Shown here piece by piece: positions 258 through 64,000 of a DNA stretch of 64,000 bases (its first letter is position 1; each line of letters begins with the position of its first letter). The stretch is from assembly GCA_008632985.1 (NCBI GenBank), contig QPGO01000051.1, positions 248,001 through 312,000 on the forward strand. The letters run 5' to 3'. The notes under the pieces are model-generated. The model searched no databases. It was not told the origin of the DNA and worked only from the letters and a program-made list of their open reading frames with translations. The position numbers were made by a program, and so were the translations under genes. Origin of the DNA: Psammoneis japonica. Taxonomy: Eukaryota.

Positions 258-280
258 AGAGAGAGAGAGAGAGAGAGAGA
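258..280. repeat. (GA)n microsatellite
   Basis: About 11 AG/GA units read directly. Confidence 0.95.
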
Positions 281-292
281 TGGGTTTCATCT

Positions 293-1367: not shown

Positions 1368-1445
1368 CAAGTCGCAGTAGAACACATTTCTACCAAGGAC
1401 CATCAGATCGCGGGCATGTTCACAAAGCCATTGCCAAAGGATCAG
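1368..1445 (+). mobile_element. Ty1/Copia RNase H C-terminal remnant
   Basis: QVAVEHISTKDHQIAGMFTKPLPKDQ resembles the Copia pol terminal motif (QIADMFTKPL). Confidence 0.75.
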
Positions 1446-10420: not shown

Positions 10421-10530
10421 GAGAAAAGGGAATAAATCTACCGGTACGCATGTGATGAGAAAAAGGGAATCTAGCTACGCATGAGAAAAAGGGAATCTAC
10501 GCATGAGAAAAAAGGGAATCTCTACTCATG
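10421..10530 (+). repeat. Imperfect tandem repeat, 4 x GAGAAAAAGGGAATCT(..)ACGCAT
   Basis: Four units read directly, sitting at the left edge of a TpA-depleted block. Confidence 0.85.
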
Positions 10531-44245: not shown

Positions 44246-44691
44246 GGATTCGATGATGTGAGATGCCGATCCGCATCCGACAAAAGTCCTAGACTGCCAG
44301 CCCAAGAACCACTGAGAAGAACCTTGGCATTGGAATGCTTGGGAGTCTCATGGAGTGGAGCTCTCGGCAACACTCTACTCCGCACAAGGGGGGTTGGGCA
44401 AAACCCACACCCTCCGCAGGGTCTCGAGTAAAACTCGAGGGCTCGTGATCAGGAACCTCTAGGATCTGCTCATGGCGCTTCCAGTCGAGACCAGTGGGAG
44501 GTGCCTCCGGCATTTCGCAACGTCGGAACCCCACACCAGATGAATCTCAGACTTGGAATCGAAGATGATGCCCGATGCTGTTCCTGTGACTTCGTAGCTG
44601 ATGCGTCGTCTAAAGCAGATCGTCAAGGAACCTGGTCCAGACTTTGCAGGTAGACTCCCGTGGTCCAACAGTGAAGTTGAGCGCAAAATCC
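44246..44691 (-). repeat. Split direct repeat B2
   Basis: ~445-bp copy of 44963-45407. Confidence 0.95.
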
Positions 44692-44710
44692 AGGGAGTGG
44701 TGGGTGGGTG

Positions 44711-44959
44711 CAAAAAATCGCTTTTCCAATGCTTTGGAATGATCCAGTCACGTTGATCAGGGTTCCTGTCTCAACAAAGATGGAAAAGTGAGAGCAACAA
44801 AACGCTGACAGGTTTGACCGGTCTCCGTGACCAGTCATCTTGGAGACCAGTCATCTTGGGCCAGAAGTGCCCGCTTCTGGAAGAGGCACAAGTCTTGGGA
44901 CATTTTCCGATGAAAGGTCTTGCATCGCACTGTTCGTCTCCATCTAAACTTGGGTGCGA
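44711..44959 (-). repeat. Split direct repeat A2
   Basis: Copy of 53531-53763 with a 16-bp internal duplication. Confidence 0.95.
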
Positions 44960-44962
44960 GGA

Positions 44963-45407
44963 GGATTCGATGATGTGAGATGCCGATCCGCATCCGACAA
45001 AAGTCCAGACTGCCAGCCCAAGAACCACTGAGAAGAACCTTGGCATTGGAATGCTTGGGAGTCTCATGGAGCAGAGCTCTCGGCAACACTCTGCTCCGCA
45101 CAAGGGGGGTTGGGCAAAACCCATGCCCTCCGCAGGGTCTCGAGCAAAACTCGAGGGCTCACGATCAGGAACCTCTAGGATCCACTCATGGCGCTTCCAG
45201 TTGAGACCAGTGGGAGGCACCTCCGGCATTTCGCAACGTCGGAACCCCATGCTAGATGAATCTCAGACTTGGAATCGAAGATGACGCCCGACGCTGTTCC
45301 TGTGACTTCACAGCTGATGCGTCGTCTAAAGCAGATCATCAAGGAACCTGGTCCAGACTTTACAGGCAGACTCCCGTGGTCTGACAGTAAAGTTGAGCGC
45401 AAAATCC
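44963..45407 (-). repeat. Split direct repeat B1
   Basis: Copy of 44246-44691. Confidence 0.95.
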
Positions 45408-45493
45408 CCCCCGATGAGAACTCCCAGGTGGTGGCCACCTGAAAAAAGAAATCTTGAGATCCAACGAAGAAGAGGCAGGTGGTGAAGCTTGTC

Positions 45494-47024
45494 TCACATT
45501 TCCTGTGTGCATCTCAGGAAAGAGGGAAGGAGGAGAGAGATGTTGGCACAGTGTTGCCTCATCTTGTGTGAGGGCCGAGCGGCCCCAGCTCGCTCCTTCC
45601 TTTTCCATTGATTCACTGCATCGATGTCGTCTTCCGACACACTCTGGGAAACAGCTCGCGAGTCAGACCCACGATGGAACGATCGGCTCACATCGCACTT
45701 CTCTTGATGTCGCCATGAGAAGTGATGTCGGCACCAAACAGAGCCGGGTGGTCGTTGAACAGTTCACCCAGAACAAGATGGAGAAGGGTGTTCAACTCCC
45801 AAGTGGTTGCAACCTTCCCTCCAGGGTCTGATGCAGCCGGCCCTCTAGCACGTCCTTTCGAAGCTTGCAAGGACACAACAGCTCGGGTCCATCCACGGAT
45901 CTGATGCCGGAACCTGTCACATTTACGCTTGGCAGAAGGTGCTGCCGCTCACCGTGTTCTCCCCCAACTCGTCGAGCAAAGGGATCACAACACACGAGTT
46001 GTGGAGTGGGAGGTGTTCCCGCAACGCCCCCAAATGATGAGCAATCCCTCTGGCCCACAAAGGGACAGGGTGAAGCTCACTGCAAAACAGAAGCCCCCGG
46101 CCAGAAACCCAAACCGATCCCCGGCGTTTGTGGCTTGAAGAAACTTGTCTTCAAGCCTTGGCAGCAGATGTTGCACAATTTGAACAGAAATTGCCCTGTC
46201 CGGCCTCCAATCCTGGCCCATTTGTCTCTTGCATCCAGTCACAAACCTTTGAAACCACAAGGAGGCACACGGGTCCTCGCATGTCTGAAGGTGTTGCTTG
46301 CCTTCAAGATCCGCCAACGCAAGGGCCCGAGAGTTGGCGGAGGCTGATGCCCTGACCTGGTTTGAGCAAGCTGTTCGAAGCTTCCTGACGGTGTCAAACT
46401 GGGAGTGCGAGCCTGAACAGTGACCGGGGGGTGTGATGCCAAGACTGTCTGCATTGCCACCTCATGTCCACAGTGATCATGCGGAGGCAAGGGGCCTGGT
46501 TCCAGATGAGGGCCATGAAGACCAAGACGATCCAACAGGGCCAATCCCTGAGCCACCTTGGACGCGTTGTTCTCCACAGTGGAACTTTCTCTGCTCCAGA
46601 ATGCACCCAAATTGATCTGCCTGATGCAAGCCAATGCCACCTCATCACGTGGAGAAGTCGGGATAGGGTCTCTGCGATGCAACTCATGAAAAATGCAAGT
46701 GTCGCACTTGAAAGCCACCATTGGATGGTCCCCAGCACGAGCTTGGAAGAACTTGTTCCTGTCCTGGGGCTTTCGAAACCAAATGTTGTCTTCAATTTGC
46801 GCCGCATCCTCACCTGGCTGGGCCCCGTCATCGTTTTGATGGTCGTCCGGGAGAATCCCGCCCAAGTGAAGGTGACGCTTGCGCTCGAAGCATGACACCC
46901 TGGACACCACGCTCTGCGACACGGAGGCCAACCTCGGACACTGTGCACAAAATTTGCGCAAAATGTCCCTCGCGTCCACTTCAGCCTCCTCCCACACTTT
47001 TGCAACGCCCGGTCCATGGAGCAC
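45494..47024 (-). pseudogene. Tyrosine recombinase of the retrotransposon (frameshifted, catalytic residues mutated)
   Basis: AFWSRESSTV; SLCGPEG (expected SLRGxE); SRSFHRGS...VNQW...MRQHC (expected RSxRRG...W...HY). Confidence 0.8.
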
Positions 47025-47063
47025 ATCTTTGGTGTCCCTCGGAGCTGCTGCGGACTGTGAGAG

Positions 47064-50061
47064 ATGAAGGGGAAAACAAGACCGATGAGCAAAGGTTCGA
47101 ACATTTCTTCAGGCCAGAACGCCCCAGCTCCCGCCGGCACCAGAAAGACGAGGTCCGCTGCCTCACACAATTGTTTCTGCCACTCCGGAGTCATTGGGTG
47201 CGGACAGACAAAAATGTGGAACGATTTCTGGCGCTTGAGGTGGGCAATGCAGAGTTCTTCGAGAGCCGTTCTAGCCGCGGCGGGCGGTGGGGCCCAGACC
47301 CAAGTGCCTGACCGGAACACTGGCATCTCAACCGCTTCGCAGGGCGGGCAGTGCCACTCAGATGTGTCGCGGCCCTTCTGGAACCAATCGACAGGAGAAA
47401 GGAGTTCGGCCGTCAGTGATCCCACCCAGGAATGGATCCAATCGAACAGCAGAGGTGCCCGCTCAGTCGCTGCCAAGTGCAAAGGAACAAACGAGAGCAT
47501 CTTGGCCCCATTCAAGACCCCTTCCACAAGATGCCTCGAAAACCCCATCTGTGCCTTGGGCTGTCATGCGTTTGCCCGAGACATGAACCAAGTGGAGAAT
47601 GAACCCGCACTTGGCCTCGAGCACCCGCAACCGTGTCACCTGCTCCAGGAGTTTCAGATTCGACGAGGTTTTTGTAGACTGCAATCTCTGAGACTGAGTT
47701 GTCAGTGAAAAAGCAGAGAGTGGTGCCATCCATTTCCCCCCGACTCAGCCAGCTCCTGGACTGCATCGATTGTGCTCGAAAGTTCCTTCCAATTTGAAGA
47801 ATTGGATTGATCATCGTCGCCCCAGATCCCAATCCGAAACACGATCGCCCCGTCCTTAGTCTGGACGGATGAACCAAGGCCCTTCCCAGACGCATCAGCG
47901 AATCCGCACAGGACCACCACAACCTTGGAGGAGCAGACAATTCCAGCAGCAGGCTCATCCGGTTCCACAATCCGTCGCAAAGCCCGCAAGTCAGAGAACA
48001 ACTGAGGCACTGCACGCACGGTCTCGGGGTGCTTGCCGTCCCGAAGGTTCTCACCAAGCTCACACGGATCAGCACTGAGCTTGTCGGCCTTGTGATGGAT
48101 CCATGCTGTGCACTCCTCATCTGACACAGCCCACCCATCCGCCTTTCGGTTTGGGCGCCAACTGTCCAGTGTCAGGTGAATCCCTTTGAGGAAGGGCATC
48201 AAAAAGGGGCAAGTCATGGCGGCATGGACAAGAAACCCACGCTTTCGTTCGAGGTCCTTAAAGTTGCACTCGGGAGGCCGAGTCATCCATTCCATCGCAT
48301 GACTTAGAAGGGACTCAATCATGCCCTTGCCCTTGTCCCACTTGGCCTGTGAAAGAGATTGGGTGACATTGCGGGCAAGCACGCGGAAAATGGCACCAGC
48401 CCAGGCACCCATCTCCTGCTGGGATGGGGGCTGAACTTTGCGCGGGGCGTTCTGGAGTCCAAGACACTGAAGCCTGGCAGCCATCTGATGTGCCACTTGC
48501 CACGCCTCTTCTTCACTGGCTCCCATGCCTGCAAGTCATCTGCGAAGGTTTTGATGTCTCCAGCGATGATCTTCAGGATGGAGTTCCATTTGATCATGAG
48601 TGGGTCTTGAACCTTGCAACTGGGATCCCCTGGGAGGTTAAAAAGAACTTTGTCAAAGCCCGCGGGGTTCCCCGGACGGCTGGGATCCCCTCGGGCCACT
48701 TCGTCAGCCCAATGATGCGTCTGCACCGCGTTGCAAGGGCTGGGCTTCATTCCCATAAACAGACGGTTCCAACGCTCCATGCCAACAGGAGATTCAGTCG
48801 GCAAGGGCCGTGGGAGGTGGTTGCGGAGCGGAGTGAGATCAACACCGGCAAAGGGTCGAATCCGTGGGTCCATGAAAAAATTGAGAAACATGTCCCCCAG
48901 ATCCAAATCAACAGAGAAAGTTGATTCGGTCATGCACCCTAACACCGACGCTGCAGTTGGAAGGAAGAAAGAAGGAGCCCAGAGAGCGTCGTTTAGACCG
49001 GATGAAGTGCCGTTGTGCACCATCCGGATGTCCTCGACTGCTTCCTCCATCCTCCCGTCAGACCTCGGGACCAAAGACACAGCCTCAGGGACCCAGAAAC
49101 AGTCTGCAAGACTCGAAACTGGAGCACGCTCAATGCATCCATGGTCCCGGACCTTCTGGATTTTGGTTGCCATGCGCTGCACTTCGTTTGCAGAGCCGCA
49201 AACCCGTTGCCACTTGCGGTTCCTGGGTGGCGTGCCTCTTGCGAAAATCGGAAGACCATCGCGTGCTCCCTGGCGTTGCTCAGGCGAGGGCCTGCGCCAG
49301 AAGAAAAGAGAAGAGCCCCGGCCCCAGCTCCACCAGGAACTTGGCAAAGTTTGAGTTAGAACGTCAGTGCCAAGATTCCCGTCCAACAGTGACGCTGGGA
49401 GTGGTGGGTCTCGATGCAAGCCCCCCTGATGACTCAACAGAGAGTCCCCAAACCATTGTCGCAAGCGCAGCAGCTGAGGAACCCATTCCCACCCGTGGCA
49501 TCGACTCATGTGCCCCAAGAACGAGCGAGTCAAACGGCGGTGCCACCACCAAAGAGCCATCACACGCAAAGCTGGAAGGACAGGCCCAAACATGGGAAAC
49601 AAAAGCGCAATCCGCTTGTCCCATGGACGAAAAGGCGGCAATGCCGAATCCCCTTTTGCCGCCTTGGCAGTGACAAGGGACAGGTTGATCCATTCGTGAG
49701 GCAAATGCCGACCAAGCCGAGGCAGCCAAGTGGCCACAGCCGGCTCAATGGCAGGTTCCGAAGGACCCAAAGATGGGTCGAGGACCGCCGGCCGGGTGCT
49801 GGTGGAGCGCTGCTCAATGACGTGGTCAATGACCGAGGCAAGTAGATTCAGTGGGATCAACTGACTCCACACCTCCCCAGAGAGCAAATCCATCATCTCC
49901 CTTGTCCGGAATCGAAGTGGGAAATCCCACGCAGCCAGGAGTTCGTCGTCACTCAACTCCCTGAGGATCCACCCCGCATGGGACCGGTGAGACTGATGTG
50001 ACACTGGCCGGTGAGTGACTTGTGGGCTCACACGATCGCCCTCCCTGTGACACACCCCCAA
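47064..50061 (-). pseudogene. Reverse transcriptase + RNase H + MT-like region of the retrotransposon
   Basis: DIRMVHNGT, DLDLGDMFLNF, MGMKPSPC, FADD; RNase H CGFADASG...SSNWKEL...FFTDN; WVWAPPP...FVCP...W segment. Confidence 0.85.
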
Positions 50062-50417
50062 AGGTTCTGAGGGGCACGGCTGTCCCGCCAGTTTGCAGTC
50101 AATGATGTGGCCAATCGTGCAACACAGGCCCCCCCTGAACTCTGGGAGAGAGCCCCCGACACAGAAAAGGGTCGTTCAAAAGGACGTGACGCCGCCAACC
50201 ACTGAATGGGGTGGGCCAACGTGACACAAGTGCTGAAGCCCTTTCAAGCCACGTCTTGACATCTTGCCGACCGGGGCCAAGTGCATCGGAACATTGCACT
50301 CCAATCGAGAGATCCTCTCCAAGCATGCCGGGTCCCCAGACACCAGTGCCACATCGCCAGCAGGCGCCAAATTGCCAATCCCTGAGAATGGCATGCGTTG
50401 AAGAGATGCACCCTTCT

Positions 50418-50813
50418 GGCGTGTTCCAGCTCTAGGTGGGACCTCGCACTGCTGAACTGTGACATGATTGTTTTTTGTCATCCGTCGCATGTTTCGCACG
50501 TGCATTTCTACGTGTTCTATCATAAAAAATTGTTCCACACTGCCTGTTTTGCGAAGCCAAAGGCTTTCTGTTGTCTGCACTCATGTCAACAAAAATGTGC
50601 TGGGTGTGTTCTTTAATGTCTAAAGAACATGCCCGGGCATGCTGTAAAGAATGTGCTTCAAGTGTGGAGGAGGAGATGCGTTCGCAAAATTGCCTCTTTT
50701 TCTGTTGGCGATCATTCATGCATGCATTGCTCAACAATTTTACTGCGGAGCTCGCACGTAGAATTCTGCGGGCCCAATGTCACAAAAAGTCCCACCCAGG
50801 ACTGGAACCCGTC
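50418..50813. mobile_element. MITE copy 2 nested in the retrotransposon
   Basis: ggcgtgttccagctctaggtgggac ... gtcccacccaggactggaacccgtc; flanks ttct/tcct; homologous to 28427-28816. Confidence 0.88.
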
Positions 50814-51037
50814 TCCTGACCCTCGCAGAGGTGGATGACAGCACACTCCAACAGGGTGGGAGGATCGTTCACACAACACAATGCGACACGAGGCCACTCA
50901 GATGGCCTTGACGCCAGGAGCCAAATGGGGGGGGCGGTGGAAATGATCAAGCAAGACCCATGGAACAAAAACAATTTGCGACCGCGGATGACAAGCCCCA
51001 CATTTTCGAACACAGGTGAGTCCACCCCCTCCGAGTT

Positions 51038-53215
51038 TCATTTCTTGGATTCTATCGCTTTCAGACACCCATTGACCTCTTTGAGTTCCGTTTTCAGTTT
51101 GTTCACCTCCTGGTGCGCCGTGTCAGCTCTGGCCTGTGCCGACTTGGCTTCGGTTCCAGCATTTTTTGCCTTTTCCGTCAGCATTGTCACTGCAGCTTGC
51201 AATGCAGTGACAGCTTCAAAGCCGGAGTTCGTAGCCAGAAATTTCACATGCTCCGATGCCATGGAGGGGTGGTCCCTGAAGTTGTGAGCTGTGTGCTCGG
51301 CCACAATGTCGTGAGACCGAAAAATTGCCCAAAGAATCTGGCTGCACACAGCATCCAGATCTGTCCCCTCGACAGACGTGAAGATGCCGGAGCGAACCTG
51401 ATTGAGATCATCGAAGATTCTGTGCACCAATTTCGAAGTCAAGGACCACGCCTGCTTTTGAGAGAACTTGCTCAGTTGCACCAGGTTCTTGCAAGTTTCA
51501 TCCACAAACTGAATCAAACCCCGAATAAATGCTGCTGACTTCGACAGGGCATCTCGAACCACCTGGCCTTCAAACGACCCCCCCGGGATTCGCTGAGCGA
51601 TGTCGTTCAAAATGTTTCGCTCGATCGTCCCAATTTTATCCATGATAAAATGCTTGGTCCCTGTTGAGCCAGTGGACCAGTGATCATGGGAGGCCATCTT
51701 GTCCAAGAACGACGGGTGAAGGCCCGCCGACTGCGCTCCTTTTGCCGAGCCCGAATCCAAAATTCTCGGCATGCCATGCTGAAAACTCGCCAGAGTCCTT
51801 GCATCCTCCTCCGTGCTGATCTTTGGGTCCATGCGCTTAGCCAGACCAGCCAAAAAATGGTGCAAAGCCGCTGGTTCCGTGCCCGCGATTCGATCCAACA
51901 ACAAATTTGCATCTGTAAGGCAGCCATGCACCCTGGAGGAAAAATGTTGTGCCACCCATGCTTGACATTCTCCAAAAGACGAGACACCGACCCCAGAGAA
52001 CTTGACAGCCGAAGTGTCTGACTTGGACTTCAACTCGTTCACCGCTTGGCTCAGATCCCGCATCTGTCGGTCCACGGAGCTCGAGCTTCCGACTCCTGTA
52101 AACCCCAATCCGCTGCCAGATCCAATCGCGCCTCCAAACGAGGCTCCCGCATTTTCAAGATTCTGAACTCTGCCAATCAACTGGTTGCAAACTTCAAGCA
52201 TGACTGTCCTCAGAGAGTCCATGTCACGCTCAGCTGCCAACCCAGAAATTTTGTTTTGCAAGTTCTGGATGGCGGCACTCACATTTGATGCCAGTCCATT
52301 GGAGCCGGCACGAACATTCGACTCCTGTGCCAAATCTACGGACAAGTCTCTGGGAGGGCACTCGGGTGAGCCGACTGTTGACAGACCAGCAAGTGTTCCC
52401 CAAATCGCAGGGGCTTCCACTTGCTGATCGAATTCCGGTGGAGGAGAACCGAGGGTTGCATCCAGCTGCTCCAACTTGCGGCTGAGGACGCTGACTGAGG
52501 AGTTCGATTCCTTGAAGTGCGCACATGCCTTGTTGCCCATCTCCACCACCGTGTTGCCGGTCTCCGTCAAGTTTCTTTCCAGGGACTGAACAACTCTAGC
52601 CAGGGCCGCAGGACTTTTGTTCGCGGCCAGAAATTGCGCCAGGGTGGTGGAAATCACCCGCTGGTGGGGTGTGAAGTGTCCGAAAAGTGCCCCAGGAAAT
52701 TCCTCGCTGCGGGGATCTTTGCCCTTCACCAGCGTCTTGTAAGCCGCAGCGACTTTGTGCTCCTTCAAAGACGCCCCACATTCTTCCTCCGTAGGACAGC
52801 GAGTGTCGCTGTTCCCGAGAGCCAGAAACTTCTGATGCCACCCTGCCAAAGTGTCGGTGTTCCCTTCCCACCTAACCAGCACCTCCGCCAAGACAAACGA
52901 GCCGTCCAAAGTGGGCTGGCAAAAAGCCGTGTCTGGTGTCTTGAGAATCGACACCATGCCGTCCGAAGGAATGACCTTCTTCGAGCCCTTGTGTTTCACC
53001 TTGCAATCCCCAGCTTTCTTGAAACAGAACGTGGCTCCACCCCCGACAACCCCAAGGCAACGGGAGTTGTCGGCACCTTCGATCCAGGTGACATGAAAAC
53101 GAGGTGCATCAGACGAAGGAGACGTGCCTTCCTCCATCGAGCCAGATGCACCTCGAGCCGCTCCCTCATCCTCCACTGCGAAAAAATCAACGCGGGGAGC
53201 GCCGTGATTTGACAT
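51038..53215 (-). CDS. ORF1 (gag-like, coiled-coil) of the YR retrotransposon
   Basis: Long open frame directly after A1; C-terminal coiled coil; only one Tyr in the 732-aa track ORF. Confidence 0.7.
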   Translation of the reverse strand: MSNHGAPRVDFFAVEDEGAARGASGSMEEGTSPSSDAPRFHVTWIEGADNSRCLGVVGGGATFCFKKAGDCKVKHKGSKKVIPSDGMVSILKTPDTAFCQPTLDGSFVLAEVLVRWEGNTDTLAGWHQKFLALGNSDTRCPTEEECGASLKEHKVAAAYKTLVKGKDPRSEEFPGALFGHFTPHQRVISTTLAQFLAANKSPAALARVVQSLERNLTETGNTVVEMGNKACAHFKESNSSVSVLSRKLEQLDATLGSPPPEFDQQVEAPAIWGTLAGLSTVGSPECPPRDLSVDLAQESNVRAGSNGLASNVSAAIQNLQNKISGLAAERDMDSLRTVMLEVCNQLIGRVQNLENAGASFGGAIGSGSGLGFTGVGSSSSVDRQMRDLSQAVNELKSKSDTSAVKFSGVGVSSFGECQAWVAQHFSSRVHGCLTDANLLLDRIAGTEPAALHHFLAGLAKRMDPKISTEEDARTLASFQHGMPRILDSGSAKGAQSAGLHPSFLDKMASHDHWSTGSTGTKHFIMDKIGTIERNILNDIAQRIPGGSFEGQVVRDALSKSAAFIRGLIQFVDETCKNLVQLSKFSQKQAWSLTSKLVHRIFDDLNQVRSGIFTSVEGTDLDAVCSQILWAIFRSHDIVAEHTAHNFRDHPSMASEHVKFLATNSGFEAVTALQAAVTMLTEKAKNAGTEAKSAQARADTAHQEVNKLKTELKEVNGCLKAIESKK

Positions 53216-53530
53216 GCTTTCTGCCCTCGAGAGCAAGGCATCGAATGCAGAATCTGGGTCAGGGGAAATGACTTCCCCAATTCCGCACGCTCAATGTCCG
53301 AATGTCCCATGTCGCCAGTCATTTCTTCAAGATTTGAGCCCCCAAGAGAGGGGCTCAAGCCTTCAACACCCCCCTGATGACCCACCGCAGAGGGTGGGGC
53401 CCGAGAAGCAGGCGACGCGGGAGACTGCACCAAAAAAGGAGAAATGACATTGGACTCTCACGTTGACGAAGGCACCATCATCGATGCCAGAGGAGAAGCA
53501 GTCGGACATGGTCGGGAGAGGGAGAGGGAG

Positions 53531-53763
53531 CAAAAAATCGCTTTTCCAATGCTTTGGAATGATCCAGTCAAGTTGATCAGGGTTCCTGTCTCAACAAAGA
53601 TGGAAAAGTGAGAGCAATAAAACGCCGATAGGTTTGACCGGTCTCCGTGACCAGTCATCTTGGGCCAGAAGTACCCGCTTCTGGAAGAGGCATAAGTCTT
53701 AGGACATTTTCCGATGAGAGGTCTTGCATCGCACGGTTCGTCTCCATCTAAACTTGGGTACGA
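53531..53763 (-). repeat. Split direct repeat A1 (5' end of the element; retains its TA dinucleotides)
   Basis: Copy of 44711-44959. Confidence 0.95.
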
Positions 53764-53995
53764 TAGGAGCGCCAAAAAATTGTGCGTTCTCAACGGTCGA
53801 AGAATCATCCCCTCCTTTTTTCGCCTTTCCCTTTCTCACATCATTTTTGTATCGGCCACGAAGTTGAATCAGCGTAGCGGACTGCCAACGGACGTTTGCC
53901 CCAACGGCTCAAACCATGCTCATGCGCAATGTTCCTCTGCTCTTGCTCTACAGTGCTGCTACTAGTAGAGTAGGAGGCCACAGCGTTGAGCCATC

Positions 53996-55630
53996 ATGAG
54001 AAATGGGGATCGGTTGAATGCAAGTGATGCTAAGCGACCACTGACACGGCGACACTCTGTTGGCATCGTCTGGTCAGGGTTCGCCCTTGCTTTCCTTGTA
54101 GCCGATACCTTTCTTTCTTCCATGTCGATGCAAGAGCTCAAATCGGTCCTAACCTACCAGGAATCCCATTCGGCACTTGTTGAACAAACGGTAGAGTTGC
54201 AAGCAAACGATCCATTTCCTCGGTGGGGTGATTCCAGAGGAATTGACATTGAAGCGATTGTAGCATTCTTCAAAACGTGGAGGTCAAAGACCAACAAGAA
54301 TCTGGATTTTCTGGATCCTCATGACACGTATCCTATTGGAAACACCGTCGTATTGTTTGGCCCACCCACAGACCCCAATGAAAGCAATTCTAGTAGTGAA
54401 GAAACAGATCCAAAGGCTTGGGTAGAAATCTCCGCAAAAATTACTCGACAACTCATCCCAAACAGACTAGTTCCAGGAGAAAAACTGCTTGTTGATGCAC
54501 TGGAGATGCTCCGTAAGTCCGTTTCTCTCAAATGGAGTAGACTCAAGCAGGTTGCACTGAGGTCTGGGCTGCCAATCATTATCAACTATGCAGACTATCG
54601 AGGATGCAGCAAGGAAAATCTCCTTTTCAATGGAACTACCTACAGTGTTCCAATCTTTTCCCTTTGTTCTGCATTCAAGGCAGAATCGTGCAATTACACA
54701 TTTCCATTACCGTCATATTTCGCTATTGAGCATGCAATGGGCAGTCCCGACGAGTGGGATAATGTTTTTAGACAACAAGATTTAAAGTACCATTGGGAAA
54801 ACAAGACGAAACTAGCGGTATGGAGAGGAACGAATACGGGGTTTCCCAGTCAGAAGGACTGTCTTCGCTATAGAATGGTCCAAGAAGCATCCAAATACCA
54901 AGACCAACTTTTTGACGTTGCATACGCCGTAAGATGGGCAGGAGCGAACGTTCGTCGTTCCCGGATTCCCTTTGAGGACTTTCAAAACTACAGAGCAATA
55001 CTTGACGTGGACGGGAACTCGTGGTCAGGTCGATTTGTCAAGCTTCTGTCAATGAATTCTGTCGTACTAAAGGTGGAGCCGGAGTTTACTGATTTCTTTA
55101 TGCCACAGCTTCAACCTTGGGTTCACTACGTACCAGTACGGGCCGACTTGTCTGATCTTGCTAATATTACAAAGTTCGTCCTGGCAGATGAGAATGCACC
55201 AAAAATGAGGGAAATTGTTCAGAACGCACGCGATTGGTCCAGAGATTTTTCTGTCTACAACAATGTGGTGGAATCGATCCTCTCCATCTTGTCTTTTTAC
55301 GTGGAACTGCTTGACAGGAATAATCCTCATTGGGAAGACGTGTGGCGAAGAAACCTGCCACATCTAGTGAAGCCGGGGTTGAATTGGGTTGCGATTCGTT
55401 CGACCAAGGGACGAGAGATCATTAATTGTGGATGCCCTCAAACTTGTAACAAGGACGCACGAAGCAAAAAGAGGAACAATCTTCCCTTTACTTGCCAGCA
55501 ACGTGTCCACTACATGATGTCCACACATGGAATGTCTCAAAATGCATCGTGTATCCATGCAAGCAATCCAGATTCTGGTGCGTGTGGGCCCGAGTGCGAC
55601 CCTAACCTCTGCACAGCAACACAAACTTGA
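53996..55630 (+). CDS. Glycosyltransferase family 90 (CAP10/POGLUT-like) with C-terminal Cys-rich domain
   Basis: N-terminal TM segment; AVWRGTNTG, YRAILDVDGNSWSGRF, LQPWVHYVPV..DLSDL. Confidence 0.9.
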   Translation: MRNGDRLNASDAKRPLTRRHSVGIVWSGFALAFLVADTFLSSMSMQELKSVLTYQESHSALVEQTVELQANDPFPRWGDSRGIDIEAIVAFFKTWRSKTNKNLDFLDPHDTYPIGNTVVLFGPPTDPNESNSSSEETDPKAWVEISAKITRQLIPNRLVPGEKLLVDALEMLRKSVSLKWSRLKQVALRSGLPIIINYADYRGCSKENLLFNGTTYSVPIFSLCSAFKAESCNYTFPLPSYFAIEHAMGSPDEWDNVFRQQDLKYHWENKTKLAVWRGTNTGFPSQKDCLRYRMVQEASKYQDQLFDVAYAVRWAGANVRRSRIPFEDFQNYRAILDVDGNSWSGRFVKLLSMNSVVLKVEPEFTDFFMPQLQPWVHYVPVRADLSDLANITKFVLADENAPKMREIVQNARDWSRDFSVYNNVVESILSILSFYVELLDRNNPHWEDVWRRNLPHLVKPGLNWVAIRSTKGREIINCGCPQTCNKDARSKKRNNLPFTCQQRVHYMMSTHGMSQNASCIHASNPDSGACGPECDPNLCTATQT

Positions 55631-55795
55631 CGCAGGACGTAGCCTACAAACTAGTTCAGTCGGCGAGAGTTGTAGCATACACATAATTTTCAGTCGGCAA
55701 GAGTCGAGAGGGTGGTGACTGTCGACGTCTACAATAAAATGTGTTTTACAAATTAGTAACGAAGCAAAGTAAACCTAAGATTCAGAACCGCACTA

Positions 55796-56928
55796 CTACT
55801 CAATGCTAGCATCGTAGTAGAAAAGAGGAAGATAAACCCATTGACCAATGCTGTTGGCTTCACAGATCATTGCCCCGTCGAGTTCATGGTCGCCCACCTG
55901 TGCTGGCATAGATGCAGCCGTTGCTGTTCTCCTCTGGCTGCTCAAGTTCTGAGCGCGTCGAAACCGAGCGAGTTCTGCCTGACATCGAGAGGCGTCCTTG
56001 GCCACCTGAACGAGAACTTCGCCAAGGACAGAGGGGTGCTGGAGCTTGATAGTGGCAACATCATCCACATTGACATTGTTCCAGTTTTCAACAAGCACTT
56101 GAATGCAGCGCTTCTGGAGGGAAGTCTGACTGGTGTGGCTTGGTTCAACGATTTTGCGTTCAGCATCCAACAGGCGAATGGCTGCATCTTGATGAACTTG
56201 TGGCAAGACACCTTGGGCTGTCAGGCCATTGAAACTGGCAGCGTCCATTTCAACGTTTTGAAACAATTCTGAAAGAAGACAACTCATGTGACGGCTCGAT
56301 TCTCTCCCCTGGGGCATTCCTCTCAGCAACAAAAGCCAAAAGTCCGGATCATTGACATGCACAATCCGAGAGGAGGTGTCAATGTCTAGAATGTTTTCCT
56401 TGAACATTCCGAGAGCAGCGTTCAATGCCTTTTCTTCATTCAAAGCCTTTGCATGTTCAATGCATGCACCGCATGTGTTGCTGCTGATGTCTTGAGTCCA
56501 GAACTTCTTGGTCTTCCAACGCAAATGTTGAATGCCAAAATGCTGAGAGAGGTGGCAAAGCGATGTGGCATTCTGAGTGTCAATGTCAAGAGCATCATCA
56601 GCAGCATGGATGTGATCCAACAAAGCAGGAAAGGCTTTCGCAGCAAGCTCTGGTGGCTCAATCTTGCTCGTCTGAGTTTGCTGTTCAGCAAACTCATTTT
56701 GAAAGAGCGAGCAGTGACAATCGCTCTTTCTTGCTCCCACGACAAGCACAATCTCATGCACATGGCAGTCCTTGCTTTTCAGTTCGTCGGACGAACAGTC
56801 CTTGCAGCTTGTCTGCACGCACCAGTCACTCAGACTCTGTTCCGGGTCAATCCTCCAGCTCAGTTCGGGGTGTTCTGGTTCTTGGTCAGAATCGAAAGCA
56901 TCCTGAACCGCGTCCGGGTCATTCGCAT
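55796..56928 (-). pseudogene. Diatom-type BTB/POZ-domain gene eroded by TpA mutation
   Basis: LSWRIDPEQSLSDW...CHVHEIVLVVG...AFPALLDHIH...LCHLSQHFGI; Tyr occurs only in the last 14 codons. Confidence 0.75.
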
Positions 56929-57006
56929 GCTGTTGTTTGCTGCGGCAACTGTCCCTTGAAGATCAACGAGACATTGCCACCAAAATGATCCACTCCAATC
57001 CGACCA

Positions 57007-60000
57007 TGGAAATGAGCTAGATGACAGCATGAGCTGGGGCAACAACCATCTAAAGCAGATGTGTGTCAACAGCGACCACTGTCAAAGAGATTCTGATCCT
57101 CGTGAAAGTCAAAATCCGCAAGAAGTGAGAGAGAGCTTCAAACCAAAAGTCTGAAGAGAGCAAAGAAGATGCCGGTTTGGCACTGGATTCCACGAGAAAG
57201 GAAGTGGATCGGACAACCCAGGAACCAAAAGGCCATCAATGGACCAAACCACTCAATGAGAAAAACCCAACAGTCCTCAATCAGACAAAGAAGCCAAACG
57301 CTCATGAAAGTCAAGACAGTGAAGTCCCATGCGAGACCTGCCAACTCCCGTGTGTGACCAACCCACGTCATAGATCAGAAACCGCAACTCTCGTTGCTTG
57401 CTCTCCCTCTCGAGAAGACGTCGACTGCAAGACGTCAGATCGCCATTGAAAAAAATTCAAACGAAGTTCGCACCAAAACACAACCCATCATGCAATGATG
57501 CGACACCACATGCAGAGATGTGACAACCCCAGTCATCACACCTGATTGCCATCACCCTTTTCATGTGCAACACATGCATTCAAACTTGAATCAACATGTG
57601 CACAAAGTGAGTCCACCAGCTGCCTGCCACCTCATCAACTTCTTCCGCAAATGCCAAACTTTTCCTGAACCAAACCCTTTGCAAAGATGTCTGCCAACTG
57701 TTCCTCACAAGCAATCTTTTGAATGTAAATCAAAGAGTCAGGCCTTGCAATGCGAGACACCTGAAGAAATGACACTTGACCGCGACATGCTTGGCACGAG
57801 AAGTCATCTTCGGCATCGTGGCCAGCGTCAAAGCACTGTTGTTGTCCTCAAAAATGGCAGAATGGAGCAACATTTCATCATCCCAATCAATGCTCATTGA
57901 AGAAGAAACTTCCTTGATGAGTCTTTTCATGGGCAGCAGGACTCTCATCACCTGAGACAAGAGGTGACATGCTCCACCTCGAGCACAGACAAAGCAATCT
58001 TGGTCTGCAGCTTGGAAGCCCATGTCAAGGGGTTGCTGCCAATGGTCAACAAGCAACCAGACCAACTCTTGACACACACACAGAATCCTGTGGGTCCTCA
58101 TGGTTCCAAAGCCCAGTGAAATCCATGTCACAACAACAATCCAACCTTGAGTCATCGAAGACGTCACAGCAAAAATGACACTGCGATCCTTTGTGCCTTG
58201 AAGATGCCTGGCAATCCACTTGGCAGCTTCCTCATGGCTCTTCTTGGGATTGTGCATGAACCCAACACAGCTGCAAACCACATTTTGAATGTTGGGCCTG
58301 GCACTGGAAGCCAGATGGAGCATCACACCAATGGCACTTGCACAGCTCCACGATTCAACTCGTTTGGATCCGTCGGCATCGGTGGCCAAAGGAGATGAGC
58401 TGGCAGGAGTCTTCTTGACATGACAATCCTCCACATTTGCAGCAGCAATGATCTTCTTGACAAGACCCTTTTGAGTGAGATGAGCAGTTCCAGCCTCATC
58501 ATCCCCATCATTGTCAACGCCAAGAAAGTCATTTGCATCGTCAGAAACATCAAGTTCATGACTGCTGGTCTTGAGCTCACTCACGATGTCATCGATTCTC
58601 ACAAGATCCTTCACAAAGAATGAACAATCATCAACATGTGCAAGGCAAACAACATCTTTGCCGATGAACAAACAAGGGTCGCTCTCACCAGAGTGCAATC
58701 CAACCTCTTCCAGACCCTTGGACAGGTGCTGGAACCATGCAGTCACTGCTTGGCGCAAGCCGCAAAGGCTCTTGTTTAGCTTCAGTGTGCAGTCTCCCTC
58801 ATGTTTCATCTCAAAGAGCTTGGGTGATTCAACACAAACACCCCTTCAAGAATGTCTGCCTGAGCAAAAGCGAGGGCATGATCCACTTGACGTGACACCA
58901 ATCCACACAGGTTCGACAGACTCATGAGCAATGAGCAACCACACTGAACCATGCTCTGCTGGACCACCGGAGCATCCGTCGGGGCATCTCTTGATTTTAA
59001 ATGCCCAAGTGCCAGTCAAAACATTGCATTTGATGGCGCCGACTCGCGCAGCACGGAGCAAATGAATTTTGTTGCGTTGGGTCATTGATTTCAGATTGCA
59101 TGGCCTTCTTGAACTCTTCTGCATGCACCCTGCCATTGCTTCATGATGTAAAGGGGGGCACCAGGATCGCGAGTCTTCTTGCTTGCAAAAGAATCCAACA
59201 GGCAGGGTGACAATGGACATGCTGAATTGACACCATCACCATCGAGATCAGCGAACATTGCACGCATCTTTGCAAATTCCACTGTTCTGCAACCAGACTT
59301 GAGCCAACAAGTTAAGTTGGAGATGAAAGAGGCCGCGCCTTTAAGAGCATGCCCATCACAACCATGGTGTTTGTCGGAACCTTCACAACCATGACAATCT
59401 GGAGGATGAATGGTTCTTCCAGAGCATGTCCAAACCGGAGTTGGGTCACTTGGAGCTTCTTGGAAATGGCCGTCATTGTTGACAATCAAAGGCATTTCTT
59501 GAGATCTTGGGATTCTTGAGTCTCCCTCTGGAGGCTCGGACACATCAGCTGGAGCCAAAGGAGACTCAATGCTCAGAGGAGCAACTTCGTCATGAATGAA
59601 ATTGGGAGAGGACAGAGAAAAAATGCCCCTGACAGATTAATTTTGACCCCTCACAGATCAGTCGTAAAATGGGAATCCACGACTAAAACAACATGCACCG
59701 CTTCGCCACTTCTGCATCCCAGAATTTAGAAAAACAGTTTTGCACGGTCAGGGTTGGGGTTTTGCATGGTCAGGGTTGGTTTTTGGGGTTTAGGTTGGGG
59801 GGCAGGGAGTGGGACTTTTGGCAAACTCCAGTTTGTGAATGAGCAAGATTCCACAAAAAAAGTCAATCTATGACAGGACCGAGCCAATCTGTGAGGAGTT
59901 GGCACCCAAGGACAGAAGACCTGGCAAAACATCTTCAGAACATGGAACACTTGACCATCTGGGAGTGGCAGAACATCCTTGGGAAGAAGACGGCACCCTT

Positions 60001-63000
60001 GGAGATCTGGGCATTCTTTCCCTCTGTTCCGTTGGTGCTGACCTGTGCTCATCGTTGCCTTCACAACTCTTCCTGTTGGCACGTTGATCACATGATTTCT
60101 CAGCAGCAAGCCAATCATCTGACAATGGAGGCAATTCTAAACCATCATCAGCATCCACATGATTTCTCAAAGCAGTGAAAAGATCCAGCCAGTTGCGTGG
60201 TGGCATCCGTTCATCATCCAAGTGAACCACCTCAAACCAATTGTCACAAACAACAACATGGAGTTGAGGCAACACAGAACCACTCTTGAGATTCTGCATT
60301 GAACCAATGTTGCTCGCATGGTCAGGCAAATGACCCACAAACTGTCCCCTGCAGCTTCAGGCTTTCCAATGAATCATTTTCTTGCCATCTTGCAATGTTG
60401 GATCCAACACGTGGGTCGGGCATCCCCAAACAGCCAAATTTGTGAGGGTTGATTTTGAAGAAACTTTCACTCCCATGAAGACTTCTTTGGGACATGATCT
60501 GTTGAAATCCATTTGTGGGGTCAAGTTCCATGAGTGGACAGAATGACTCATGGCCATGGGCCACAAATCCATCTCTGCTGCATCTGGCCATTGAACTGCT
60601 GCAGCATGAAACACCACAGATCTTGCACATGTTGCTTGCTTGGCAATGGCGTTCTGATGGTGCGCACCTTTCTCCTTGAGTTCCATGAGGAATTCTTTGC
60701 TCACAAAAATCCTGTCATCCAATTGACATGCTTGGACAGAGACACCAGCAGAAGCAGCCTCCCTCTTGAAACTGATTTTGCTCTTGACAGTCTCGAAGGC
60801 ACTGGACAAAACTTGATGATGAACTGACACCTTGCCAGATGCAGTGTCAACAAAAACAGTTCTGCCGCCACATTTGTCTGCCTCTTTGGTCTTCCCATGG
60901 GATTTGAACAGACGACCTTGAACAGAGGATGCACGCTGGCCTGCAGCAACAAGTTGTCCAGGATGAAGAATGTCAGTCTTGAGAGATTGATCCCAGCTGG
61001 GAACCTTTTCAGCCCACACAGCTCCGGTCAGACGAGGAGTCATTTGACCATGTTGACATGCAGCGCACTTGGGATTTTTGACAGCAGTGGAGCTGATGGT
61101 TCTTGCAGCATGCTGAACATTCAATGTGATCAAAGCCAAGATGACCAAGGCAAAAGTGCCACTGCAAAAGTCTCTTTTTTGCTTCTGAAACAAATTTTGG
61201 TTGAATTCATCCATCACACACACGTGTGGATGCATTTCTTCTGGTTCGCTGCTGAAAAAGGATTCCTTCCAATCGCAGCAGGGAGCCTGTCAGTTTCATG
61301 ACAAGGCACAGCAACAGTGCCACCGTCACACCAATGAAAGAAAGCGAGGTCCTTGGAGGTGTTGACATTGAGGAGCCTGCAGCCCAAGCTGCTGCCACAT
61401 TTGTCGTCCCCACAATGAGCAACACTCAACAACTTCACAGGAGAAGTCGGAATGCAAAAGCACTCTGTGCGGACATGTTGTTCACGTCCGGCATCATCAA
61501 ATGCCATCCATTCAACAACACCCACACCCTCTGACGACATCAACATGACCTCCAACATGAAGGAAGTGGCTCAGTTTGTCAAATGTTTGAAAGTTTCAAA
61601 GGTGCAAAGTCTTCCTTGTCAAAGGCAGAAGTTGCGTTGGCCCCAGAATTGAACAAGATCTTGAGTTGCTTGTCGTGAGGGGACAAAAAGGACATCGGAA
61701 GATGGCTGACTTGTTCCCTCAAATCAACATTCACAAAATGGTGCGCGAGCATGCACGATGCAACATTTGGAAGTTGGAAGGTCCGAATCATGGTTTGTGA
61801 TCTCGTGAATCGATTTGTCACAACAATGATGACAACACTTGAAATCAAAATCTGGCACTTGATCATGCAGATGCTTGATTTCTTGAAGAGTCATGTGACG
61901 TTTCTTGGAAGAGCTTGGCCACAGAGCTGGGTAAATCCCAACAAACATCAAAATGATCACCAACACATGAATCAATTGATGATGGAATGTTGAACAAAAT
62001 GTTGTCCGTTGAGCCTTCTGGAACAACTGTGGCTCAGTTGAGACTTCAGGATTGGGCAGCTCCTTCTTCTTGGGCATCTCCACATCATGTTGGACAAATC
62101 CTGGCATCCATTGGAATGCACATGGATGACATTTGCAGACTGCAAAGCAGAGCATCACAAAAGACCACATGGATGTCATGCTGCATGCCGACAAAATGCA
62201 CAAGGCTTCTGGATGCACTTCCAATGCCACTCGGATCTGAATCTTCTTTTGCATCAGTTTCCCTCTGATGATTGGTTTTAAATGGGACAGGACTCTTTGT
62301 GAATGACAAACCAACAATCCACTGGCCCATTGGTTCAACAAGTTGCACACCAAAGCACAGCCCATGAAGATCCGATTCGATGCACTCTGGGCCAAAGTGC
62401 ACTCTTGAGAGGCTTGGGCAGTGCCAGAACCTTGCACAGAAGCATCCCAAGATGTCATTGGCATTGGAAGTGCAACTCTTGGATTGGCTTTGAGCAGCAG
62501 CAGTGGCACTCTGAGTGTTTGCATCGGCAGCTCCCTCTGGAGCTGAATGATTGGCAGTTTCATGAGTGGCCCAGCACCCACATCTGCCACACCAATGCTT
62601 GGTCACACCATTGGAGACTCAAGCATGAGATTCTCCATGTCTCAGAGGAATCTCACAAGGATCCCTTTGAGTTCAAGCAGCCTGGCATGGCCAGCAATTG
62701 CAGCAATCGCCACGACCACAACCACCTCCACCCCAATCTCCATGACCACCACCACGTCCACCATGGCCTGGGTTTCCACATCCACTGCCACCACCTTGAC
62801 TGTTGTTGTTCCGGGGTTGAGGGCAGCTTGGATGGATGTGGCCTCATTGACCACAGTTGCAGCAAACACAATTGTCTGCGCAGTTTAGAGAAGTGGCAAA
62901 TCTGGACTTGCCTGCATTTGAAGAAGTTCATTCTTCACAATCATCCACCAAACTTGTGTGTGACTTGTTTGCATGCACAGTGAGATTGCCGTGCATGCAT

Positions 63001-64000
63001 CTCATCAAATCCACATCAACTTTGTTGAAAGAGAGTCACAAATTGAATCTAAAATGACTCGAGAACTGTTGATGTTGCAAGACCACTGCAAATGATCAAA
63101 GCAGCATCTTCGGGAAGCTTGTGATGGCCTTCTTGGCATCTGCACAATTCAACAACCTTTGCAGCACAGTTCTTGACATTCTCTCCTGGCTCTTCCTTGA
63201 GTTTCACAGCCTTGAGTTTGTCCACCACCATGCACAGAGCCCACTCAGTTGATGAATGCAACTTGTTGGCAGTGACAAGCTTGCAGACAACGGGCCCATG
63301 CGTGGGTCCACCAATGTGCTTCTGGGTGTCACCGTGTGGGGTGACAACCAACCAAGTTTAGAAAGAACTGTTTGGGCCAAAGCAAGTTTTGATGATCACA
63401 TTGGCCACCCATTGTGAGCGACTCTTGCAGATCCGACAAGCTGCAATCCATCACGAGATTCAACTCTTGAGGTGCCCCAGTCCTCGGGTCTCTCCTCTGG
63501 ATGCAGAGCGCGGAATCCGTGCCACTCATGAGAACACATTTGCCAACAGAGTTGGTCCAACTGATGAGAGTCACCTTGCAATCCTTGCCAGTGTCAATCT
63601 TTGACTCCAAGCCTTTGTGACAGCAAGAGACAATTGTTGTTGTGTGACAGAATGACATCGGACGTTGACATCTAGGTCCACAAGCCATGGCATGTGGACC
63701 AGTGATTCTCGGACCATCGGTCCAAGTGATGTGCCTCAAGAAGTGGAGAAGTGACCTTGAGATTGATCCCCAAACTTGGCACTTGAATCATCTGACGTGT
63801 CATTGTTGCCAAACAAACTGGCGTCATGCCGACAAGAGTGTTTCTTGATCCTCCAGAACAATCACTCATTTCGGAGAATCAGAGGTCTTGCTTCATGTCA
63901 ATTTGCAGACCAGTCAATTCAAAGCAATGACAACACTTGGGCTCACAACCACGGAAGTGAGCTAGATGACAGCATGAGCTGGGGCAACAACAACTGTCCA
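57007..64000 (-). mobile_element. Ty1/Copia (CoDi-like) LTR retrotransposon, degenerate; 5' LTR runs off the window
   Basis: Order gag, PR (61214-61558), IN (60357-61235, GAHHQN, WGCP..VLDP), RT/RH (57730-59220, SLCGLRQA, HVDD, KHVAVKCHFFR); LTR-end match 57003-57046 vs 63948-63991. Confidence 0.9.
63938..63950 (-). other. Primer-binding site, half-tRNA-iMet type (mutated)
   Basis: Minus strand GGTTGTGAGCCCA next to the LTR end; the Ty5/copia-type PBS is GGTTATG(A/G)GCCC. Confidence 0.65.

Follow-up and report, generated by a model that had tools for sequence, protein, structure and literature searches.

Near-total loss of TpA and of tyrosine codons from two dead retroelements in a diatom genomic window: a probable case of locus-targeted A:T to G:C hypermutation

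How can a mobile element lose nearly all of its tyrosines and still keep long open reading frames (ORFs)? The question is raised by a stretch of DNA from the diatom Psammoneis japonica (GenBank assembly GCA_008632985.1, contig QPGO01000051.1, positions 248,001 to 312,000, forward strand). This whole stretch of 64,000 nucleotides (nt) is called the window hereafter, and all positions are those of the window. It carries two dead retroelements, a tyrosine-recombinase element of the DIRS order and a Ty1/copia-type element, in which an initial annotation had noticed His or Cys at conserved Tyr positions and had proposed a systematic erasure of tyrosine. In this study, we find that the tyrosine loss is a by-product of a near-total loss of the dinucleotide TpA. 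The conversion took place after insertion, in chromosomal DNA and on both strands, and we consider it likely that it reflects a locus-targeted A:T to G:C hypermutation at TpA, probably by adenine deamination, accompanied by decay of CpG.

Tyrosine columns and TpA-depleted domains

The two elements and a host frame next to the second are composed as follows (RT, reverse transcriptase; LTR, long terminal repeat).

44246..53763, minus strand: dead tyrosine-recombinase retroelement of the DIRS order with split direct repeats (self-BLAST and alignments; collinear with intact three-ORF relatives)
53514..53763, minus strand: repeat A1, 5' end of the recombinase element; keeps 7 TA
51044..53269, minus strand: ORF1, gag-like, of no Pfam family (tblastn with the relatives' ORF1)
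46988..50355, minus strand: remnant of ORF2 (RT and RNase H), frameshifted near 48526, with the motifs RMVH, SPC and CGFADASG
45497..47095, minus strand: ORF3 remnant, tyrosine recombinase, in at least three frames and internally scrambled; Arg to Cys in SLRGPEG, Tyr to Cys codons at 45550 and 45511
44963..45407, minus strand: repeat B1, twin of B2
44693..44959, minus strand: repeat A2, twin of A1; keeps 1 TA
44246..44691, minus strand: repeat B2, 3' end of the recombinase element (self-BLAST and alignment)
57003..64000, minus strand: dead Ty1/copia-type LTR retrotransposon, cut by the window end (RVT_2, LTR match, tblastn)
55796..56962, minus strand: BTB-domain frame of a large host family (Pfam); codons 1 to ~305 lie in a depleted domain, the last 83 codons in normal DNA

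All motifs quoted in the initial annotation were located, on the minus strand in each case: KRCPDG (58975-58992), SLCGL (58756-58770), HVDD (58627-58638) and KCHFFR (57760-57777) in the Copia element, and RMVH (49015-49026), SPC(N) (48730-48741), CGFADASG (47885-47908) and QHC (45542-45556) in the recombinase element. The RT frame said to be free of tyrosine (48319-50175) has 0 Tyr in 618 amino acids (aa), and the ORF1 frame said to have a single one (51038-53290) has 1 in 750 aa; the Tyr content of homologues is 1.6-3.5%, except in a small number of Copia relatives poor in Tyr. Where a column is conserved as tyrosine among relatives, the recombinase element keeps it at 0 of 14 (8 Cys, 5 His, 1 Phe; 12 of 80 fetched loci used, with two pairs of near-duplicates), Copia pol at 0 of 8 (4 Cys, 4 His; 25 of 43 matches used) and the BTB frame at 0 of 8 (3 Cys, 3 His, 1 Phe, 1 Ile; 59 of the 150 matches listed used). 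Other conserved columns are kept at 493 of 615, 191 of 255 and 95 of 134, respectively. Pooled, the count is 0 of 30 (15 Cys, 12 His, 2 Phe, 1 Ile), which is far beyond chance given the ~77% retention elsewhere (0.23^30 by our arithmetic).

The window has CAY or TGY at sites that are TAY in the relatives; the direction of mutation is therefore TA to CA and TA to TG, as had been claimed. Catalytic motifs are disabled as well: the lost tyrosines include those of the Copia RT YxDD box (here HVDD), of the RNase H motif YGF(A/G)DASG, and both conserved C-terminal tyrosines of the recombinase. The nucleophile of the latter may be the Tyr of QxY or that of RYT; both are Cys in the window, and the claim that the nucleophile is lost holds either way. 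CpG decay adds changes of Arg to Cys, His or Gln, including the Arg of the recombinase motif SLRGPEG, now Cys, and the elements are additionally broken by frameshifts and, in ORF3 of the recombinase element, by scrambling. In Pfam, RVT_2 matched the Copia frame above the cutoff (E 9e-15), and no integrase match was obtained on that mutated frame.

The notion of an erasure of tyrosine stands insofar as the conserved tyrosines are gone, but the target is the TpA step, in all frames and in non-coding DNA too, and not tyrosine. Along the window, the observed/expected ratio (O/E) of TA, taken over 500 bp, is bimodal, with six blocks at 0.04-0.10 and the remainder at ~0.57. The edges of the blocks are sharp to within ~100-150 bp, being steps rather than gradients. 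The blocks, and a host gene that serves as an internal control, are the following.

43456..53618, no strand: TpA-depleted domain 1 (TA positions and 500-bp O/E), the recombinase element minus its first 146 nt, plus ~790 bp past its 3' end
56050..64000, no strand: TpA-depleted domain 2, the Copia element plus ~950 bp past its 3' LTR end, continuing off the window; 21 TA in 57100-64000
53990..55630, plus strand: host GT90 glycosyltransferase gene (Pfam) between domains 1 and 2, intact-looking, TA O/E 0.55-0.56; internal control
25454..31024, no strand: depleted DNA in two parts, 25454-28442 and 28800-31024, interrupted by an unconverted transposon copy at 28429-28816; content without recognised family
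10523..11569, no strand: depleted block of 1 kb, content without recognised family
1..1378, no strand: depleted block, continuing off the window, content without recognised family

The span at first taken to be affected, 45494..61558, does hold the motifs, but the domains reach further (43456-53618 and 56050-64000 or beyond) and the window has four more depleted blocks. In domain 1, 27 TA are left in 45500-53300 outside a nested transposon discussed below, and TA density is normal from 43438 downward and from 53618 upward. The host genes that separate the depleted blocks have normal TA. Two of the six sharp-edged blocks fall on the identified retroelements. The long frames of the other four had no Pfam match, and a tblastn search with every Copia and recombinase-element protein that had been fetched detected no additional fragment in the window beyond the two elements; the block at 10523-11569, which stands alone between host genes, could be a solo repeat or a fragment.

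Altogether, 86 TA remain in 25,351 bp of depleted DNA (3.4/kb), against 1,469 in 37,890 bp elsewhere (38.8/kb), and TA-free runs extend up to 1,794 bp. Pooled O/E in the blocks versus elsewhere is 0.06 versus 0.57 for TA, 0.52 versus 0.97 for CG, 1.53 versus 1.16 for CA and 1.62 versus 1.17 for TG. The remaining 12 dinucleotides are nearly unchanged, AA, AT and TT being stable, and a mass balance by flank class shows that the TA and CG lost roughly equal the CA and TG gained. Six-frame translations contain 0.08% Tyr in the blocks and 2.17% elsewhere. Stop codons are lost selectively, TAA falling from 8.95 to 1.54/kb and TAG from 8.66 to 1.34/kb while TGA stays at 23.8/kb in the blocks, in agreement with the proposal that dead frames are left open. 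Frames of at least 100 aa occur at 4.10/kb in depleted blocks and at 2.08/kb elsewhere, and the accompanying warning of misleading ORFs is well founded: annotation may take Tyr-free, Cys/His-rich frames for genes, and such regions would stand out in a simple scan of TA O/E.

Could this composition be native to the elements? Families that avoid TA and CG, natively or under selection, would resemble some RNA viruses that avoid UpA and CpG, in which joint suppression of TA and CG with an excess of CA and TG is the known pattern, and a few Copia relatives are indeed Tyr-poor without extra His or Cys. Against this, the environmental relatives carry Tyr at the affected positions. In all 80 environmental loci of recombinase-element relatives TA O/E is 0.40-0.75, and no 1-kb segment of them falls below 0.30; the set was found via two peptide patterns that would miss heavily mutated copies. 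By this comparison the TpA depletion of the recombinase element is derived and not native. The destruction of catalytic Tyr and Arg and the broken frames refute a native origin for these copies, and the depletion runs into a host gene; as a general account we find it scarcely credible.

Time, strand and place of the conversion

The direct repeats of the recombinase element record changes within one copy. Over 445 nt, B1 and B2 show 26 differences, every one a transition within a pyrimidine-purine (YpR) step. They comprise 6 double sites with CA versus TG, 7 sites with TA versus CA or TG, and 7 with CG versus CA or TG. The double sites are the expected outcome of independent strand hits on an ancestral palindromic step. 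A1 and A2 differ at 10 of 234 positions, 6 being TA versus CA or TG.

A second record is a miniature inverted-repeat transposable element (MITE) within domain 1.

50412..50813, no strand: nested MITE of ~400 bp with terminal inverted repeats (alignment), partly TA-converted

Two contigs from sequencing run X1 (Logan contigs, 31-mer, depth ~50, up to 315 kb long) skip 50412-50813, which shows that the MITE inserted into the element later. When the nested MITE is aligned with a second copy at 28429-28816, 11 TA sites of the latter can be compared; the nested MITE reads TG or CA at 7 of these, and no change runs the other way. The process therefore continued here after the MITE arrived, and acts by place and not by family. 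The copy at 28429-28816, between two depleted blocks, retains 27 TA. Summed X1 depth of the MITE is 35,000-53,000 versus ~55 for single-copy contigs, making it extremely abundant in the genome. The two copies have terminal inverted repeats of ~35 bp; their ends are conserved and their middles diverge.

Both strands were hit. Tyr changed to Cys at 15 columns and to His at 12, and the sense-strand O/E of CA and TG is 1.45 and 1.27 in the recombinase element and 1.65 and 1.66 in the Copia element. The near equality of the two directions excludes editing of sense RNA or of a single cDNA strand as the main cause. As a sign of a transcription-coupled mechanism, strand asymmetry gives no consistent picture in the two elements: gains of CA and TG are unequal in the recombinase element and equal in the Copia element, and the Tyr codons lean the opposite way.

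The conversion also reached host DNA. The BTB frame, with 1,058 homologues at E <=0.001, has 0 Tyr in its first ~305 codons, and its only 3 Tyr lie in the last 12 codons. Its contig depth in run X1 is 72-80, versus 101-134 for the GT90 gene and ~160-420 for transposon bins. Some 950 bp of host DNA, apparently single-copy, at the 3' end of the Copia element was thus converted.

These observations bear on editing during retrotransposition, by which ADAR-like conversion of adenosine to inosine (A-to-I) on element RNA, or deamination of cDNA, would let copies arrive already mutated. In favour of this route, each of the two large targets is a retroelement and the MITE at 28.4 kb, which is of DNA type, is unmutated; a 5' U preference also fits ADARs, according to the Discussion of a preprint on Bigelowiella natans (Mettrop et al., bioRxiv 10.64898/2026.01.13.699255, April 2026). 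The sense-only A to G change of an ADAR is, however, not what is seen, with the strands hit about equally; the nested MITE is partly converted, and repeats of the same copy diverged independently, as their CA-versus-TG doubles show. ADARs also favour a 3' G, whereas the 3' preference here is for a pyrimidine. Conversion of the BTB flank and of ~790 bp past the recombinase element largely refutes this route, which we regard as very improbable.

Run X1 further allows an assembly artefact to be judged, in which a long-read base-caller would have misread modified bases in silent chromatin, 5-methylcytosine (5mC) and possibly N6-methyladenine (6mA), as T or G. Nanopore errors at methylated motifs do take the form of 6mA to G and 5mC to T. 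Yet the X1 contigs repeat the depleted sequence, with 4 differences in 1,422 nt (a single contig covering 55247-56668), 3 in 795 nt (58408-59198) and 1 in 607 nt (62613-63220); 31-mer contigs at a depth of ~50 should reflect accurate reads, although X1 may be the source sample. Miscalls on mixed strands should moreover make CG from TA, yet CG is depleted, and an artefact of this kind is barely conceivable. At >=80% identity, 3,897 X1 contig pieces align, so the element families are multicopy. The places that differ comprise 1,727 transitions and 555 transversions, with 386-455 of each type of transition and 58-82 of each type of transversion; among the 40 of 2,284 differing places that were listed are adjacent CA/TG pairs at 46176/7, 51533/4, 52195/6, 53205/6 and 53213/4.

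The depleted domains are offset in the sense direction of both elements. Viewed on the sense strand, domain 1 starts 146 nt inside the 5' repeat and stops ~790 bp beyond the 3' end, and domain 2 stops ~950 bp beyond the Copia 3' LTR. The targeted region would thus resemble a transcription unit, from start site to read-through, or a domain of silent chromatin that the element has seeded. Targeting does not look duplication-driven, because the abundant MITE at 28.4 kb and two duplicate stretches of 80-87% identity (described below) are unconverted, while the flank of single-copy depth is converted.

The same evidence weighs on classical repeat-induced point mutation (RIP), or a process driven by RID or DNMT4. 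Such a process shares the confinement to blocks, the restriction to transitions, the spill into flanks and the killing of transposons, and the CpG to TpG part could be of this kind. But RIP changes C to T and enriches TpA, so that the TpA part, with an O/E of 0.06, refutes it by direction, and it is the duplicated gene flanks and the highly repeated MITE that are untouched here. To RIP or RID as the cause of the whole pattern we give next to no credence. Many diatoms carry a DNMT4 related to fungal RID, of unknown function, as stated by Hoguin et al. 2023 (PMC9998398). DNMT4 or RID could bear on the CpG part and cannot explain A:T to G:C changes.

Rate, flanking bases and chemistry

In the A and B repeats, 3 of ~395 non-YpR positions differ. 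Per copy, ~74-85% of TA was converted, about three quarters in the B repeats and ~85% in the element interior (0.08 versus 0.52 in relatives), giving by our arithmetic a TA rate ~10^2-10^3 times the background, with a wide error set by 3 events. CpG sites in the repeats changed ~10 times less often than TA, and the ratio of TA to CG loss is unlike between the two elements. The slower CpG change and the unequal ratio suggest two overlapping processes, the second of which would be ordinary decay of methylated CpG.

Survival of TA depends on the flanking bases. With host genes as the baseline, and not ancestral element copies, no RTAY sites (ATAC/GTAT, GTAC, ATAT) survive in the blocks, compared with ~7% of RTAR/YTAY and ~27% of YTAR. 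An additive per-strand model by 3' neighbour fits all ten contexts, with rates of about 2.2 for T, 1.8 for C, 0.8 for G and 0.5 for A (our arithmetic). Twenty events could be polarised at sites where one repeat or MITE copy is still TA, a choice that makes them TA to CA or TG by selection. In 11 of their 13 asymmetric contexts the A before a pyrimidine was hit (one-sided binomial ~0.01, our arithmetic), and across the 20 sites the 3' neighbour was C for 12 of 16 available A's. If thymine were the modified base, the same data would read as a preference for a 5' purine.

We favour locus-targeted hypermutation, under which a host process would, after integration, convert chromosomal TpA to CpA or TpG in defined domains, on both strands and almost completely, and the same domains would lose CpG to TpG or CpA, as expected under cytosine methylation. 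The most likely chemistry would be that of an enzyme deaminating adenine to hypoxanthine, a base read as G, and acting on the adenine of 5'-T-A-3' with a 3' pyrimidine, C above all, preferred. The targeted unit would be the locus or domain rather than the sequence family. The predicted outcome is an irreversible missense inactivation (Tyr to Cys or His; Ile to Val, Thr or Met; Val to Ala) in which TAA and TAG vanish and the dead frames stay open. Any mechanism must explain the action on both strands, the 3' pyrimidine, the CpG decay, the sharp and offset edges, the spill into a host gene, and the sparing of MITEs and duplicates.

A thymine-directed route would leave the same marks. In this case a TET/JBP-type oxygenase would oxidise T at TpA to 5-hydroxymethyluracil (5hmU) or 5-formyluracil in silenced DNA, and mispairing with G would turn T to C. 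The sequence data are equally compatible with it, since an A before a pyrimidine is a T after a purine, and base J and dinoflagellate 5hmU are known cases in which T is modified at TpA. However, 5hmU is weakly mutagenic, so that near-saturation would need a very efficient step, and no feature of the window speaks specifically in its favour; we hold this route to be unlikely.

Several points weigh against the hypermutation reading as we have set it out. The deaminase, adenine as the modified base, the targeting signal and a role in defence are all deduced, neither an enzyme nor a modified base nor a de novo event having been observed, and sequence alone does not separate adenine deamination from a route directed at thymine. 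The same domains also carry CpG transitions, which the available sections of the B. natans preprint do not mention, so that two overlapping processes, or one differing process, may be at work. The edge pattern comes from only three edges on two elements, and the untouched MITE at 28.4 kb between depleted blocks needs the extra assumption of a recent insertion or of a domain no longer targeted. Flank survival was scaled to host genes in place of ancestral copies. Finally, Tyr changed to His after a T at 3 of 5 His sites of the recombinase element, which makes the 3'-pyrimidine preference a bias and no rule; on these sites the candidate rule that Tyr changes to His only after a purine was rejected.

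The elements, their setting and known systems

On the sense strand the recombinase element reads A1 - ORFs - B1 - A2 - B2, with split direct repeats instead of LTRs, and we take it to be of the split-direct-repeat DIRS-order type (Ngaro/PAT-like). Intact environmental relatives have an ORF1 of ~780 aa, an ORF2 of ~1,300 aa and an ORF3 of ~530 aa; split repeats were sought in the loci of three relatives and none were found, in contigs that may be truncated. Pfam gave no Phage_integrase match for the intact relatives. Pfam is thus blind to the recombinase even in intact relatives, and the assignment was made by fold. An AlphaFold model of ORF3 from one relative (L006) has a C-terminal domain with a confidence score (pLDDT) of 74-94 and a poor N-terminal half, and all top Foldseek matches of that domain are tyrosine recombinases, XerH (E 2e-4) followed by Cre, Flp and lambda Int. 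ORF3 is, on this predicted structure, a tyrosine-recombinase fold. The motifs SLRGPEG, RRGS, NRW, QxY and RYT are conserved in the relatives' ORF3. For the RT, the window frame has no Pfam match and an intact relative matches RVT_1 at E 0.0085, below the cutoff, so that the resemblance is at the level of motifs only.

Two further features of the recombinase were seen. The alignment of the relatives' ORF3 with 45497-47095 has a Cys-rich N-terminal segment, in which certain C, W and F positions are invariant, ahead of the catalytic domain, and Trp replaces the usual last His (NRW). One environmental relative (L017, 3681-5375) shares with the window the reading QHC in place of QxY at this position of the recombinase, whereas L013, to which it is closely related, has QYY; a single TA to TG change in another host may account for this.

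The end of the Copia LTR at 57003-57046 equals 63948-63991, the 5' LTR being cut by the window end. The pol remnant occupies 57656-61481 in several frames, and polyproteins of relatives are collinear over 61481-57656 (tblastn); we take the element to be akin to the diatom Copia elements, CoDi. Among its relatives, four apparently intact polyproteins of 1,400-1,600 aa from ENA/Logan contigs (P0132, P0127, P0131 and P0129) contain 0.3-1.4% Tyr (0.3% in P0132, 0.8% in P0127) with His and Cys not raised, and have Phe, Trp or Leu at several Tyr-conserved columns. This Tyr-poor subgroup might be a lineage purged of TA that escapes TpA-directed mutation.

The window DNA is eukaryotic nuclear. Pfam identified intron-poor host genes for an M13 peptidase, an ABC1 kinase, a family-3 G-protein-coupled receptor (GPCR), an ABC transporter, a light-harvesting protein, an ankyrin protein, LMF1, an MFS transporter and the GT90 glycosyltransferase. 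The named relatives of the latter are from the diatoms Mayamaea and Chaetoceros, named relatives of the retroelement RT are from the diatoms Fragilaria and Epithemia, and Bacillariophyta is the commonest phylum in the nearest clusters of the light-harvesting protein. Scans of the window with Rfam (gathering thresholds) and for tRNAs gave no matches. The family-3 GPCR-like gene (ANF receptor plus 7tm_3; 14856-18369, minus strand), in DNA of normal TA, extends across three consecutive frames, the interruptions presumably being short introns. The duplicate stretches mentioned above, 24226-24838 and 31624-32278, are direct, lie beside the light-harvesting gene (24208-25308, minus strand) in DNA of normal TA, and flank the depleted block at 25.4-31.0 kb on either side; they look like a tandem gene pair parted by transposon insertions.

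The closest known parallel comes from mutation-accumulation lines of B. natans, in which, as the preprint reports, two integrated viral regions acquired 231 single-nucleotide mutations and 230 of these changed A to G or T to C at TpA, at ~6e-7 per site per generation or ~1000 times background. The preprint also describes 124 TpA-poor, CpA- and TpG-rich clusters in the genome, with RT and DDE domains enriched among TpA-poor coding sequences, and proposes an A-deaminase, an ADAT2 homologue (bioRxiv 10.64898/2026.01.13.699255). The two cases share the change of TpA to TpG or CpA, its occurrence on both strands, bounded regions of foreign DNA, a TpA-poor and CpA- and TpG-rich footprint, and, by our rough estimate, what may be a similar order of rate. 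They differ in the host, a chlorarachniophyte there and a diatom here, and in the targets, giant-virus and virophage inserts there and Copia and tyrosine-recombinase retroelements here. The process is near saturation here (TA O/E 0.01-0.1), compared with a Rho of 0.45 in the nucleocytoplasmic large DNA virus (NCLDV) region there, and here it comes with CpG decay, a flank spill of ~0.8-0.95 kb that includes a host gene, and a measurable 3'-pyrimidine preference, for which the available sections of the preprint give no counterpart. In B. natans the events were seen de novo; here a footprint is what is seen.

A literature search found no TpA-directed hypermutation or TpA-free transposons for diatoms, the B. 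natans preprint being the sole matching description. To our knowledge, no eukaryote was known before April 2026 to direct A:T to G:C mutation at chosen loci. The window, the one locus covered here and one whose mechanism is deduced, would be a second lineage with the TpA hypermutation signature, here on retrotransposons and near saturation. This suggests a process widespread in the SAR (stramenopile, alveolate and Rhizaria) supergroup, and a real means of killing transposons rather than a peculiarity of two viral inserts.

Fungal RIP is similar in its irreversible, transition-only mutation of transposons, its bounded blocks and a dinucleotide footprint usable for genome scans, and RIP too leaks into flanks. 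In contrast, RIP turns CpA into TpA and creates stops, whereas here TpA becomes CpA or TpG and stops are removed, and no dependence on duplication was seen in the window. The ADAR and AID/APOBEC enzymes of animals share deaminase-type transitions in a preferred dinucleotide context, directed against foreign or repetitive nucleic acid. The region targeted by AID starts just downstream of the promoter and includes both strands, resembling the domain edges here. However, ADARs act on RNA, from which the sense strand alone would be inherited, and APOBEC and AID deaminate C; neither gives A:T to G:C changes on both strands of a chromosome. With the DIRS order, the recombinase element shares the A1-ORFs-B1-A2-B2 layout, the three ORFs and the tyrosine-recombinase fold. 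Both window copies differ from DIRS-order and Copia elements in being dead, and even intact relatives of the first are sub-threshold for RVT_1.

The TadA/ADAT2 family offers the closest likeness in context. The natural substrate of these enzymes is A34, which follows an invariant U33, and the sequence read by bacterial TadA is U-A-C-G (the U33-A34-C35 loop); the preferred context here is 5'-T-A-C/T. We know of no demonstration that a natural algal ADAT acts on DNA. As a tentative proposal, to which we give somewhat less than even chances, diatoms and chlorarachniophytes may share an old defence that works as RIP in reverse, in which a TadA/ADAT-type DNA adenine deaminase acting at 5'-TAC/TAT would be directed to newly integrated mobile DNA, at its transcription unit or its silent chromatin, and would erase TpA until the element is dead. 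If this is true, the footprint, open frames that lack TA and Tyr and are poor in stops, could be read from any genome, and the shared deaminase defence would be a third eukaryotic mutational immunity, beside the RIP of fungi and the APOBEC/ADAR systems of animals.

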